Source: Escherichia coli (lineage in GTDB: Bacteria; Pseudomonadota; Gammaproteobacteria; Enterobacterales; Enterobacteriaceae). Taken from it: 64,000 nucleotides of DNA. Under the pieces are notes generated by a model. The model had not been told where the DNA came from and ran no database searches. It saw nothing but the letters and a program-made list of their open reading frames with translations. The position numbers were made by a program, and so were the translations under genes. The stretch lies in NCBI RefSeq assembly GCF_013315695.1, contig NZ_CP054353.1. One strand, 5' to 3'. Positions 13,016 to 16,176 of this stretch are shown here, in pieces (positions within the stretch are counted from its first letter, which is position 1; each line of letters opens with the position of its first letter).

Positions 13016-14109
13016 TCCTGAGCCAGAGAAAGCAGTATTTGCGTAACGCGCCCTGCGGAAAGCGGGGTGCTGTGAGTAAATACTGCTTGTTTATGTAGCC
13101 AGTCGATAAAATGTCTGCTGGTTGCGAAAGAGAGCATTACAGCTTTGCTGTTATTTCCGCCCGTTAATGCACATACCATTTTACGATTTTTGCCCTGAAC
13201 CCAGAGTTGCCACTGATTTTTCCACCAGCCGTGATAAGTTTTTCCCTGAAAACGCCAGGGCGTATTATCGGTATAGTCAGCTATTTCCTCTTCAATAAAC
13301 CAAATTTCACCTTGCTGTTGGCGAAACAGTTCTGCCCAGGCCGTAATAATCGCACCTCTTAAAAAACACTCGTGTGAAATTACATGTGTTTTTACTGTAG
13401 GGAATAAAATATTCAGTACTCTAAAATGCCCGTGCGCTGTGATAACCGGACGCAGAATAACACCTTTAGCATTGCGTTTGAGCGCTGCGCTGCCATACTG
13501 AATTTCATCAAACTGACTGCGGCGTAGAAATTGTGCTTCGCGCATATCAACGCGTTGTACAATATTACTCTCGTGTAACTCTGGTTCTGCATTTCCTCTG
13601 TATCGATAATACAGACTTTCTCCAGCCTGATGCTGCGTGTAATTAGTAGAAAGATGAAGAATATTACCGCGAAGAGCATCAAAACTGATTAAAACATACA
13701 GTTTCTGCCCGCCGCTGGCTCCCTGAAATGGCACCAGAAGAGCAACCGTTTCGATTATTTCAGGAGGCGTTATTTCTTTCTGATATTGTTTAGGTGTCCA
13801 GACTTTTTTGCAGTTACGACATTGAATGCGTTGCGACCCCTGTGGATTGTGGCCATAACAAATCGTCTTTGTGCCATAACATACCGGGCAGAAATGACCT
13901 TTCTCAGTTGCAAAAGTAGATAAGTGAACTGACAACCAGTCACGAAATTGCTGTTCGTCAAACAACGGCGGGTAACTTCCACATGCCCGACAGTGCAGTG
14001 CCGGATAACCCAGTCGATAGTCTGGCCAGCTGTAATCTGTCGAAGTTGGCTGCCCTAAATTACGGCAACCAAACGACTTGCAGGCATTAATCGTAAACAG
14101 AGTCGACAT
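12979..14109 (-). CDS. Hypothetical cysteine-rich (multi zinc-ribbon) protein, accessory; function unknown
   Basis: 376-aa ORF in visibly AT-richer DNA; N-terminal 100 aa carry C-x4-C, C-x2-C, C-x2-C and C-x2-C pairs including CPVC...QRIQCRNCKKVW, which resembles the IS1 InsA / IS1595-type transposase zinc ribbon; no recognisable catalytic motif; 3' end overlaps metL by 37 bp. Confidence 0.55.
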   Translation of the reverse strand: MSTLFTINACKSFGCRNLGQPTSTDYSWPDYRLGYPALHCRACGSYPPLFDEQQFRDWLSVHLSTFATEKGHFCPVCYGTKTICYGHNPQGSQRIQCRNCKKVWTPKQYQKEITPPEIIETVALLVPFQGASGGQKLYVLISFDALRGNILHLSTNYTQHQAGESLYYRYRGNAEPELHESNIVQRVDMREAQFLRRSQFDEIQYGSAALKRNAKGVILRPVITAHGHFRVLNILFPTVKTHVISHECFLRGAIITAWAELFRQQQGEIWFIEEEIADYTDNTPWRFQGKTYHGWWKNQWQLWVQGKNRKMVCALTGGNNSKAVMLSFATSRHFIDWLHKQAVFTHSTPLSAGRVTQILLSLAQDYNNCARRLISD

Positions 14110-14241
14110 ATATCACCAACGATTTCACAAGGTCGTTGATTTTGTCCGGCAACGCTCCCTTGTGGATGTGATTGCTCTCACATAAATAATTCTTTCAGAA
14201 CGTAATGTAGCAATCCTTTATCTCACTGGAAGGGATTGTTT

Positions 14242-15795
14242 ATGAAAATTAAAATGCTTGCTGCGGGTATCGCATTAACACTGCCGTTTTGGGCTTGCGC
14301 CAAAGATGTCACCATCATTTATACCAACGACCTCCATGCACATGTAGAGCCTTATAAAGTGCCGTGGATTGCTGACGGTAAACGAGATATTGGCGGCTGG
14401 GCAAATATCACTACGCTTGTTAAACAAGAAAAAGCTAAAAACAAAGCGACCTGGTTTTTTGATGCGGGTGACTATTTTACCGGGCCGTATATCAGCAGCC
14501 TGACTAAAGGCAAGGCGATTATCGATATTATGAATACCATGCCATTCGATGCGGTCACTATAGGTAATCATGAATTTGATCACGGCTGGGACAATACGTT
14601 ATTACAGTTGAGTCAGGCAAAATTCCCGATTGTGCAGGGTAATGTTTTTTATCAGAACAGCAGTAAATCATTCTGGGATAAGCCCTATACCATCATTGAA
14701 AAAGACGGCGTGAAAATTGGCGTGATTGGTTTGCACGGTGTATTTGCCTTTAATGATACGGTATCTGCGGCAACGCGAGTGGGTATTGAGGCGCGTGATG
14801 AAATTAAATGGCTACAACGTTATATCGATGAACTCAAAGGCAAGGTTGATTTGACCGTTGCGCTGATTCACGAAGGTGTTCCGGCCCGCCAGTCCAGTAT
14901 GGGGGGCACAGATGTGCGCCGCGCACTGGATAAAGATATTCAGACGGCAAGTCAGGTGAAAGGGCTGGATATTTTGATCACCGGGCATGCACATGTGGGT
15001 ACGCCGGAACCGATTAAAGTCGGCAATACGCTCATCCTCTCCACTGACAGCGGTGGGATTGATGTCGGTAAACTGGTACTGGACTACAAAGAGAAGCCGC
15101 ATGATTTTACGGTGAAAAACTTCGAGCTTAAAACCATTTACGCCGACGAGTGGAAGCCCGATCCGCAAACAAAACAGGTGATCGACGGCTGGAATAAAAA
15201 GCTTGATGAAGTGGTGCAACAAACGGTCGCGCAATCGCCGGTTGAATTAAAACGTGCCTATGGTGAATCGGCTTCCCTCGGGAACCTGGCGGCTGATGCT
15301 TTACTGGTAGCGGCGGGTAAAAACACCCAATTGGCGTTAACCAACTCTGGCGGCATTCGCAATGAGATCCCCGCAGGGGCGATTACGATGGGCGGCGTCA
15401 TCAGTACCTTCCCGTTCCCCAACGAACTGGTGACGATGGAACTCACGGGTAAACAATTACGCAGTTTGATGGAACACGGCGCAAGTTTAAGTAATGGCGT
15501 TTTACAGGTATCGAAAGGCCTGGAAATGAAGTACGACAGCAGCAAACCGGTTGGTCAGCGGGTAATCACACTGACTCTGAATGGCAAACCCATTGAAGAT
15601 GCGACAGTTTATTCTATTGCCACCCAGAGTTTCCTTGCTGATGGTGGAGATGGTTTTACCGCCTTTACCGAAGGGAAAGCGCGTAACACAACGGGCGGTT
15701 ATTACGTTTATCACGCCGTGGTTGATTACTTCAAAGCGGGTAACACCATCACGGATGAACAGATCAACGGTATGCGCGTGAAAGATATCAAGTAA
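14242..15795 (+). CDS. Secreted bifunctional metallophosphatase / 5'-nucleotidase (UshA family)
   Basis: ORF 14236..15795; first ATG at 14242 with GGAAGGG RBS 6 nt upstream; signal peptide [20 protein letters not shown]; motifs [27 protein letters not shown] and a C-terminal nucleotide-binding domain ([14 protein letters not shown]). Confidence 0.8.
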
Positions 15796-16106
15796 AAGTA
15801 CGTATTGAGTTGATTCATTTGTTTGTTACCCGTTGATTTTGCAGATCCAGTATTCGGCCTACGCGAGGGCGCAGGCCGAATCAGATGCCTTAGCATCACC
15901 ATCCGGTGGCAGGACGTTGTTTTTCGAATAAGCCCAGGTGTCGCTGTGTTGTCAGAATATCAGTCAAAACGTGCGAGGTGGATTGCGCTATAGAGAAATC
16001 TTTTATCGCCTCTAATTAAGATGAGTTTTTTTCAACTTCCCTGATTTTTCCTCACCATCATTGGTCATTTTTCGGTTGACGCCCCTCGGCTTTTCCTTCA
16101 TCTTTA

Positions 16107-16138
16107 CATCTGGACGTCTAAATGGATAGATGTTCACA
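16107..16138 (+). promoter_or_regulatory. metF operator (tandem met boxes)
   Basis: acatctgg acgtctaa atggatag atgttcac: four tandem 8-bp met-box-like repeats about 40 bp upstream of metF. Confidence 0.65.
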
Positions 16139-16176
16139 ACACAACATATAACTACAAGCGATTGATGAGGTAAGGT

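Follow-up and report, generated by a model that had tools for sequence, protein, structure and literature searches.

Transposase-like zinc-ribbon gene divergent from an exported 5'-nucleotidase gene between metL and metF of Escherichia coli, a candidate regulator of nucleotide scavenging

Genes and strain-variable segment between metL and metF

The stretch of Escherichia coli DNA analyzed here (64,000 nucleotides of contig NZ_CP054353.1, called the window) carries two divergently transcribed genes between the methionine genes metL and metF. One encodes a 376-amino-acid (aa) protein, named ZnRH here, and the other an exported 5'-nucleotidase. This work concerns the ancestry of ZnRH and its possible role as a local regulator of nucleotide scavenging. 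The genes and boundaries of the locus are as follows.

10583-13015, plus strand: metL (open reading frame call)
12979-14109, minus strand: ZnRH gene, 376 aa, with two zinc ribbons and an RNase H-like domain of the transposase fold (RefSeq WP_000105527.1, "hypothetical protein")
13016-16026, no strand: segment that varies between strains relative to K-12-type E. coli (blastn junction mapping and direct reading of both sequences)
14242-15795, plus strand: exported 5'-nucleotidase gene, 517 aa (RefSeq WP_000694759.1)
16177-17067, plus strand: metF (open reading frame call)

The nucleotidase open reading frame was listed from position 14236; the ATG at 14242 is the start in RefSeq and in all orthologues. 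The gap between metL and metF covers 13016-16176 (3161 bp), versus 348 bp in a K-12-type genome (JM83, locus L002, with the end of metL at 1716 and the start of metF at 2065). These open reading frame coordinates confirm the layout given in a preliminary description of this DNA, which had two divergent genes in a 3161-bp gap and a K-12 gap of roughly 350 bp. The ZnRH gene is not wholly within the gap, as its final 37 nucleotides (the last 12 codons) run antisense to the end of metL. The G+C content is 0.43-0.47 over 13000-14800, compared with 0.55-0.61 in metL and about 0.55 in metF, in agreement with the AT-richness first noticed by eye. The low values span the ZnRH gene and the first half of the nucleotidase gene, the 3' half of which is at about 0.50-0.52.

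Junction mapping by blastn shows that homology with K-12 ends right after the metL stop codon and returns at 16027. From there through the metF promoter the identity with K-12 is 97.6%. K-12 holds 197 unrelated bp where the window has 13016-16026, and the difference is therefore a replacement and not the plain insertion of about 2.8 kb that had been proposed. Junction mapping of the K-12-type gap detected no remnant of the islet. E. coli AF3 (NZ_OZ547117.1), a blood-culture isolate, matches the window with 100% identity.

At least 80% of the segment is present in 1837 of 5426 complete E. coli genomes (34%), and K-12 lacks it. The ZnRH gene occurs in 1842 complete E. coli genomes at 1843 places and is hence single-copy. 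A longer form of the islet, found in UTI89, the type strain, and others to a total of about 659 complete E. coli genomes, has a Tsx-type channel gene and two more nucleotidase genes between metL and the ZnRH gene. This long B2 form occupies 6360-10507 of the UTI89 locus (L004), its Tsx paralogue is c4894 in CFT073, and its ZnRH protein is 77% identical to that of the window.

A scan across species, with one genome per species, returned 37 loci that were then mapped by BLAST. The order metL, ZnRH gene, nucleotidase gene and, after further sequence, metF was found in 23 of them, which represent E. coli, E. whittamii, an Escherichia clade strain, Pseudocitrobacter, at least eight Citrobacter species, Klebsiella pneumoniae, K. 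oxytoca, K. spallanzanii, Kosakonia, Phytobacter, Superficieibacter, Kluyvera, and Salmonella arizonae. In Salmonella enterica subsp. enterica, the pair is likewise at metL-metF. The same scan placed the pair at 11 further loci away from metL-metF, mostly with tsx and extra nucleotidase genes. The occurrence of the pair at metL-metF across genera indicates that its presence is ancestral and that the pair was lost or replaced in E. coli of the K-12 kind. Rather than a recent insertion, the segment is an ancient, strain-variable module of the Enterobacteriaceae. Of the strain-variable insertion described earlier, the variability stands (1837 to 1842 of the 5426 E. coli genomes, with K-12 lacking the segment) and the insertion does not.

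Carriage on plasmids or phages was considered and rejected, the matches in those collections being mislabelled chromosome fragments that carry metJBLF, and katG or priA. The alleles of the islet are mosaic: between the window and UTI89, the rate of synonymous substitution (dS) is 0.27 for the nucleotidase gene and 1.07 for the adjacent ZnRH gene, which places a recombination breakpoint in or near the 132-bp control region between them. Between the window and Pseudocitrobacter vendiensis (L016), the nucleotidases are 98% identical, the ZnRH proteins 93%, and both MetL and MetF 94%. The islet proteins are thus more alike than these flanking proteins would lead one to expect, which suggests that the islet was exchanged between the two lineages. 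The ZnRH gene is truncated or fragmented in Salmonella arizonae (L048), Escherichia sp. MOD1-EC7003 (L044), and Kluyvera genomosp. 3 (L047), the last of which looks like a frameshift-rich assembly, since all of its genes are fragmented.

Domains and ancestry of ZnRH

Three regions can be delimited in ZnRH.

13981-14088, minus strand: first Cys4 motif, codons 8-43 (N8, C10, C15 ... C40, C43; "CKSFGCxNLG ... HCxxCGSYPP")
13795-13890, minus strand: second Cys4 motif, codons 74-105 (C74, C77, C97, C100), a zinc ribbon of the InsA or IS1-IS1595 transposase type
13009-13761, minus strand: RNase H-like core with the fold of transposases carrying an Asp-Asp-Glu (DDE) triad, codons 117-367, with a beta-rich insert at about 265-316 and C-terminal helices up to the conserved Y366-N367

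Sequence searches with ZnRH against Pfam, NCBIfam, PHROGs, PADLOC, and PDB gave nothing significant. The sole library signal came from residues 74-105, which matched the zinc-binding domain of IS1/IS1595 transposases below threshold. A word-indexed homology search retrieved Enterobacteriaceae proteins alone, named "cytoplasmic protein." An exhaustive profile search extended the family to 143 clusters at 50% identity, with full-length relatives of 400-570 aa at 20-40% identity, and the full-length 376-aa open reading frame is kept in more than 30 species at 58-93% identity. The family profile had no meaningful match among PDB sequences. A phage origin was rejected, PHROGs having given just a weak match to a zinc-ribbon "transposase."

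Conservation was counted in a family alignment of 55 sequences. Each cysteine of the first Cys4 motif is conserved in at least 90% of the members, and the motif has no match in Pfam or NCBIfam. For the second motif, the NCBIfam model IS1_IS1595_Zn scores the window protein at 21.3 bits, under its cut-off of 28, and distant members at 28.7-34.3 bits, over it. The IS1 transposase model aligns with distant members over its positions 1-81, or over as much as 1-130, and Pfam Zn_ribbon_InsA matches 9 of the 55 members at an E value of ≤1e-3. In profile comparison with hhalign, the family matched IS1 InsAB' with a probability of 96.6% and an E value of 5.9e-10 over the whole InsA part, that is, the zinc ribbon and the helix-turn-helix (HTH), covering IS1 residues 4-40 and beyond. 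The IS1 sequence used as query was validated at 243 bits against the IS1 model.

An AlphaFold2 model built from 21 close homologues reached a predicted local distance difference test score (pLDDT) of 38.8 and was discarded. After relatives at 20-40% identity had been added, the model reached a pLDDT of 94.9. The nearest relatives of its RNase H-like fold are IS1 transposases, and the fold comparison gave values of 8.3 and 7.9 for TnsB, 7.7 for the HIV, SIV, and PFV integrases, 7.6 for Tn5 transposase, and 7.2 for Mos1. Alignment of the core with a single IS1 sequence by hhalign did not go past the InsA part, and Smith-Waterman comparison of the cores with IS1 was uninformative; a mapping of the DDE positions onto IS1 made by hand is not relied on. 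Taken as a whole, descent of ZnRH from an IS1-type transposase is highly probable. The preliminary description, a cysteine-rich zinc-ribbon protein, was right that no family is assigned and fell short in that the protein appears to be more than a zinc ribbon, with an origin in an IS1-type transposase.

The alignment conserves the cysteine pairs C10/C15, C40/C43, C74/C77, and C97/C100, together with R197, H228, H246, E247, R251, W296, W300, and N367. R197 and H228 are invariant, and H246, E247, and R251 are conserved in at least 89% of the 55 members. Among the acidic columns, E247 is universal, D201 is acidic in 47 of the 55 members, and D144 in 41, with hydrophobic residues or cysteine elsewhere. 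P221, conserved in 53 of 55, lies at or beside the expected second catalytic aspartate, as placed by secondary-structure register only. The window protein is gapped across the HTH columns that are filled in distant members, and the AlphaFold2 model has coil alone between residue 107 and the strand at 118. The zinc ribbons are the only elements in the window protein that resemble DNA-binding domains, and the InsA-like segment has a pI of 9.4.

ZnRH is not a mobile insertion sequence (IS). The whole-protein IS1 model NF033558, with a cut-off of 100 bits, scores the window protein at 20.5 and distant members at no more than 35.5. No flanking inverted repeats bracketing the ZnRH gene or the gene pair were found, one end of the gene overlaps metL, and no sequence outside the two genes is conserved at either end of the pair. 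The ratio of nonsynonymous to synonymous substitution (dN/dS) is 0.11-0.19 in eight informative pairs, with dS up to more than 1. The gene is syntenic across genera in the BLAST map of the scanned loci and the plasmid and phage collections contain no genuine plasmid or phage that carries it. Judged by its sequence, the gene combines transposase ancestry with single copy number, orthologous position, and purifying selection, the testable attributes of a domesticated transposase. It differs from IS1 InsA and InsAB' in being a single open reading frame without a frameshift, with an extra N-terminal Cys4 motif and a beta-rich insert. The family is about 150-300 residues longer than InsAB', its E. 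coli branch has no HTH, and it is syntenic, without an invariant DDE triad, terminal repeats, or multiple copies. Annotation of family members by automated pipelines varies between "hypothetical protein," "cytoplasmic protein," and "IS1 family transposase," the last of which is probably a misnomer.

Control region, nucleotidase, and linkage to nucleotide scavenging

Four features were delimited in the region between the two genes.

14110-14241, no strand: divergent control region between the start codons, 132 bp
14117-14138, no strand: inverted repeat CAACGA-N10-TCGTTG, directly upstream of the Shine-Dalgarno sequence and ATG of the ZnRH gene
14167-14182, no strand: CRP consensus TGTGATTGCTCTCACA, an exact TGTGA-N6-TCACA
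14192-14208, plus strand: conserved box CTTTCAGAACGT with a TTC-N-GAA core, followed by TAATGT, near-invariant in the alignment

The control region keeps a length of 130-138 bp across 23 distinct orthologous regions, among them ones with a partner protein at only 37% identity, and its alignment contains three invariant blocks that persist though dS exceeds 1. The CRP site is the sole exact TGTGA-N6-TCACA in the 64-kb window, where 0.05 would be expected by chance. It is conserved in all aligned loci. Measured from the nucleotidase start, its counterparts elsewhere lie at -72 to -75, and TTCNGAA lies at -45 to -48. Centered at about -40.5 of the predicted nucleotidase transcription start, the site would by its spacing hold a class II position. 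TAATGT is the predicted -10 hexamer of the nucleotidase promoter and the CTTTCAGAACGT box a candidate operator. A second promoter in UTI89, that of a nucleotidase-nucleotidase-tsx operon, has a CRP-like site followed by TTCTGAAC, with the layout of a CRP site and TTCWGAAC. Additional genes in the other multi-gene loci have no separate CRP sites and follow closely behind the divergent promoter.

The inverted repeat at 14117-14138 is kept across genera. In locus L008 its arms are altered yet complementary, and one pair is broken in some orthologues. It could be an autoregulatory operator or a hairpin in the leader RNA. A search of Rfam over 12500-16600 found no known RNA. On the other side of the region, the nucleotidase leader (14214-14241) has a predicted hairpin of -12 kcal/mol, in which GCAATCCTTT is paired with AAGGGATTG and the Shine-Dalgarno sequence is covered. 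Sequestration of the Shine-Dalgarno sequence by this hairpin was rejected as a general feature, as the hairpin is kept with one-sided changes in Escherichia and Citrobacter and not in distant loci. In Salmonella, a small RNA has been predicted between STM4102 and STM4103 (PMC2916834).

The nucleotidase contains the Pfam domains Metallophos (PF00149, 4e-12) and 5_nucleotid_C (PF02872, 5e-39) and an N-terminal signal peptide ending in ...WACA/KD. Reading of the sequence showed the metallophosphatase signature motifs DLH, GDYF, GNHEFD, and GHAH. Residues 21-519 match PDB entries 3IVD and 3IVE ("Nucleotidase" of E. coli) with 1114 bits in phmmer. On this match, it is essentially the protein crystallized in 3IVD, with its structure already solved; these crystals presumably hold uridine and cytidine. 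The earlier assignment to secreted UshA-family nucleotidases agrees with these domains and the 3IVD match at the level of the UshA superfamily. The protein scores 151.6 bits with the NCBIfam UshA model (NF007109; cut-off, 600 bits) and is a separate paralogue rather than the UshA orthologue; it is likewise no orthologue of CpdB, NadN, or SoxB, the NCBIfam scores for which are all far under their cut-offs. The E. coli nucleotidase shares 87-91% identity with that of Klebsiella or Citrobacter, with a dN/dS of 0.02-0.07. The literature yielded no published substrate range or physiological role for it.

Genes for nucleotide or nucleoside scavenging stand beside family members in 41 of 41 assessable contexts, which include relatives down to 20% identity. 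Co-occurrence had been put forward as the check on whether the two genes form a functional pair, and the outcome favors such a pair: the ZnRH gene is divergent from a nucleotidase of the window type in all 34 enterobacterial loci with enough flanking sequence, 11 of them away from metL-metF. More distant relatives, P0123 (39% identity) and a protein of Vibrio taketomensis (27%), are also divergent from 5'-nucleotidases, and a Vibrio sinensis protein and P0160 are encoded directly downstream of 5'-nucleotidases. Other neighbors belong to nucleoside catabolism and uptake. P0149 is divergent from a tal-add-deoC-deoA-deoB-deoD operon and adjoins a Bmp nucleoside ABC transporter, and the Motilimonas proteins are divergent from deoD-tal-deoB ... 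nupC, with add downstream. A Thaumasiovibrio protein lies 42 nucleotides downstream of a deoD-type phosphorylase, and a Vibrio brasiliensis protein follows nupC-add. A paralogue of Salmonella enterica serovar Give (P0140, 28% identity; L009-L011, including relatives) is divergent from genes for a porin, an e(P4)-type 5'-nucleotidase lipoprotein, and a class II cyclic-nucleotide phosphodiesterase. The neighbors thus come from differing families and always from one pathway, which argues strongly for a functional link; that the ZnRH family is tied to nucleotide and nucleoside scavenging is very likely.

Two further observations concern these neighborhoods. The islet of P0140 is flanked by IS3-family fragments in some contigs (L009-L011). 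In Motilimonas (L051/L052, about 6600-6790), a strongly conserved small open reading frame lies between the deo genes and the family member, and it resembles a 59-aa gene of the DUF1427 type (weak Pfam match) beside nupC-add in Vibrio brasiliensis (L055, 5758-5937).

Proposed role of ZnRH and alternative explanations

Nucleotides cannot cross the inner membrane, and nucleosides can be imported. In the scheme proposed here, the periplasmic 5'-nucleotidase would dephosphorylate external nucleotides to importable nucleosides, and the long B2 form adds two nucleotidases and a Tsx nucleoside channel to the module. cAMP-CRP bound at 14167-14182 would activate the nucleotidase promoter. ZnRH would act as a local regulator dedicated to the module, most likely as a repressor, binding the TTC-N-GAA box by the -10 hexamer, the inverted repeat at its own leader, or both, with its former catalytic domain working as a sensor or oligomerization domain. 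In the enterobacterial branch, which has no HTH, binding might be achieved by the zinc ribbons alone, by way of the leader RNA, or through CRP. Binding to DNA (or RNA), repression as opposed to activation, a ligand, and the promoter positions are all predictions. IS1 InsA is itself a zinc-finger and HTH repressor that binds the IS1 ends (PMC12428005), and a role as local regulator is plausible for this reason. On balance, we consider regulation of the adjacent CRP-dependent nucleotide-scavenging module by ZnRH somewhat more probable than its absence.

Several findings weigh against this assignment. The enterobacterial branch has lost the InsA-type HTH of about 45-55 residues that distant members keep, and DNA binding by IS1 InsA requires both the zinc finger and the HTH (PMC12428005), so that InsA-like binding by the window protein is doubtful. 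The window protein retains D144, D201, and E247, where the catalytic positions were assigned by secondary-structure register and conservation and not by three-dimensional superposition. The conserved polar cluster R197, H228, H246, E247, and R251 could be a remodelled catalytic site and not a ligand pocket. Several distant homologues are encoded on the same strand downstream of an enzyme gene, an arrangement that fits an operon-encoded enzyme or accessory factor equally well. The candidate operators are short, and no convincing shared motif was found in the intergenic regions of distant groups. The nucleotidase is intact beside the truncated ZnRH gene in L044 and L048. Searches of the literature for ZnRH or its islet (locus tags c4894-c4898 and STM4102-4104, the PDB code, and the concept) found no paper. 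With these points counted, we put forward only tentatively the wider proposal that a gamma-proteobacterial family (Enterobacterales, Vibrionales, and Motilimonas), descended from a domesticated IS1-type DDE transposase, is dedicated to regulating the scavenging of extracellular nucleotides and nucleosides, probably in response to a ligand and possibly binding RNA or partnering CRP in the branch without an HTH.

An alternative in which ZnRH is a cytoplasmic enzyme acting on nucleic acids or nucleotides in salvage, with its zinc ribbons holding the substrate, draws on part of the same evidence. Its catalytic site would have been kept or re-invented around H228, H246, E247, and R197, possibly with D144 and D201. 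The RNase H-like fold, the invariance of R197 and H228 with H246, E247, and R251 at 89% or above, and the presence of D144, D201, and E247 in the window protein suit such an enzyme, as do the loss of the HTH in the enterobacterial branch and the genomes of the Vibrio type, in which the gene directly follows an enzyme gene on the same strand with gaps of 18-110 nucleotides. However, the aspartate positions of a DDE enzyme are unconserved (D144 in 41 and D201 in 47 of 55 members acidic), and most members keep the InsA-like DNA-binding zinc ribbon and the HTH. The neighboring enzymes are periplasmic, whereas ZnRH has no signal peptide, and the divergent layout with a control region of conserved length is typical of local regulators. 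We regard the enzyme as unlikely.

The three remaining explanations carry far less weight. The pair might be a mobile cassette in which ZnRH, a still-active atypical transposase or recombinase, moves the nucleotidase gene or genes. The pair does occur at metL-metF and at 11 other loci, its G+C content is under that of the flanks, its alleles are mosaic (dS of 1.07 versus 0.27 between the window and UTI89), and identity with Pseudocitrobacter reaches 98% for the nucleotidase but only 94% for MetL. Homologous recombination accounts for the mosaicism, however, and no terminal inverted repeats, target duplications, or conserved ends are present: the 231 bp past the nucleotidase gene are specific to Escherichia, and homology on the other side stops within the coding region. 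The gene is also single-copy, not on real plasmids or phages, without an invariant DDE triad, and stable in position in many genera, and the cassette is accordingly very improbable. Even less credible is a functionless, decaying IS remnant that stands beside the nucleotidase gene by chance. It would agree with the automatic annotation of distant members as "IS1 family transposase," the truncations in L044 and L048, and the two thirds of E. coli genomes without the gene. It is at odds with a dN/dS of 0.11-0.19 at dS up to more than 1, an open reading frame that is full-length in more than 30 species, many invariant residues, a confident AlphaFold2 fold, and a single pathway reached through different neighbor families. 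Defense systems do include nucleotide-degrading enzymes and transposase- or nuclease-like sensors, and a variable islet of low G+C content could hold a toxin-like system or one directed against phages, such as one in which ZnRH, as a DNA-sensing zinc-ribbon protein, sets off nucleotide depletion. Yet neither protein has a PADLOC match at an E value of ≤0.1, and the nucleotidase, with its signal peptide and its match to 3IVD, probably acts outside the cytoplasm. The neighbors elsewhere are ordinary catabolic genes (deo, nupC, add, and tsx), the promoter is of the CRP type, and the locus is stable in the core met region across genera, which leaves a defense role as remote as the decaying remnant.

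Eukaryotes offer well-documented cases of transposases domesticated into host regulators; the demonstration in bacteria is recent and concerns the TnpB-derived TldR. FHY3 and FAR1 are eukaryotic transcription factors that come from Mutator-like elements. ZnRH resembles them in that a DNA-binding zinc domain and a dead catalytic core would be reused as a host regulator, and in being single-copy, syntenic, and under purifying selection, and differs in that they are eukaryotic and belong to other transposase superfamilies. We know of no DDE transposase that has been described as domesticated into a bacterial metabolic regulator. TldR proteins are RNA-guided transcription factors derived from TnpB (bioRxiv 10.1101/2023.11.30.569447). 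As proposed for ZnRH, they are transposon-encoded nucleic acid enzymes that lost catalysis and were recruited as gene-specific regulators, and both families adjoin their target or partner genes. TldR comes from the RuvC-type TnpB nuclease, whereas the ZnRH family would come from the RNase H-like DDE transposase of IS1, and no guide RNA is evident for it in the Rfam search of 12500-16600. The function of TldR has been demonstrated, and that of ZnRH is a prediction.

CytR and DeoR are the classical regulators of nucleoside uptake and catabolism and work with cAMP-CRP. ZnRH is likened to them (for CytR in Vibrio, see PMC4581735) by its proposed control of nucleoside and nucleotide scavenging genes of the deo, tsx, and nupC type at CRP-dependent promoters. 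It has neither a LacI-type nor a DeoR-type domain, and its fold and origin are unrelated to theirs. If the proposed role is correct, ZnRH would be the first described metabolic regulator in bacteria derived from a DDE transposase and would add a missing regulator to nucleotide and nucleoside scavenging. The breakdown products of nucleic acids are sources of carbon, nitrogen, and phosphorus, and their scavenging is relevant to growth in urine, blood, the gut, and marine settings. The family is found in uropathogenic and bloodstream E. coli, Klebsiella, Salmonella, and Vibrio, and the family's absence from K-12 would explain why it has gone unstudied. Classical uropathogenic strains have the islet in its B2 form, which includes three nucleotidases and a Tsx paralogue. 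The tsx paralogue c4894 is among the genes induced by overexpression of TosR in CFT073 (RNA-seq table, PMC5956150).

One additional feature lies between the nucleotidase gene and metF.

15852-15881, no strand: GC-rich hairpin 3' of the nucleotidase stop codon (inverted repeat I16, 13-nucleotide arms, 92% complementary), resembling a terminator or a repetitive extragenic palindromic (REP) element

This hairpin falls within the 231 bp from the nucleotidase stop codon to the return of K-12 homology (15796-16026), the conservation of which is confined to Escherichia. Citrobacter and Klebsiella have at this position a gene for a LysR-type regulator and one of the carboxymuconolactone decarboxylase family. 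At the opposite end of the segment, an inverted repeat with 27-nucleotide arms (13030-13088) lies directly 3' of the metL stop codon and inside the 3' coding region of the ZnRH gene; it is probably the metL terminator. The K-12-type spacer contains a RefSeq gene for a 44-aa "hypothetical protein" (L002, 1855-1989, minus strand) that adjoins a REP-like palindrome and has no counterpart in the window.

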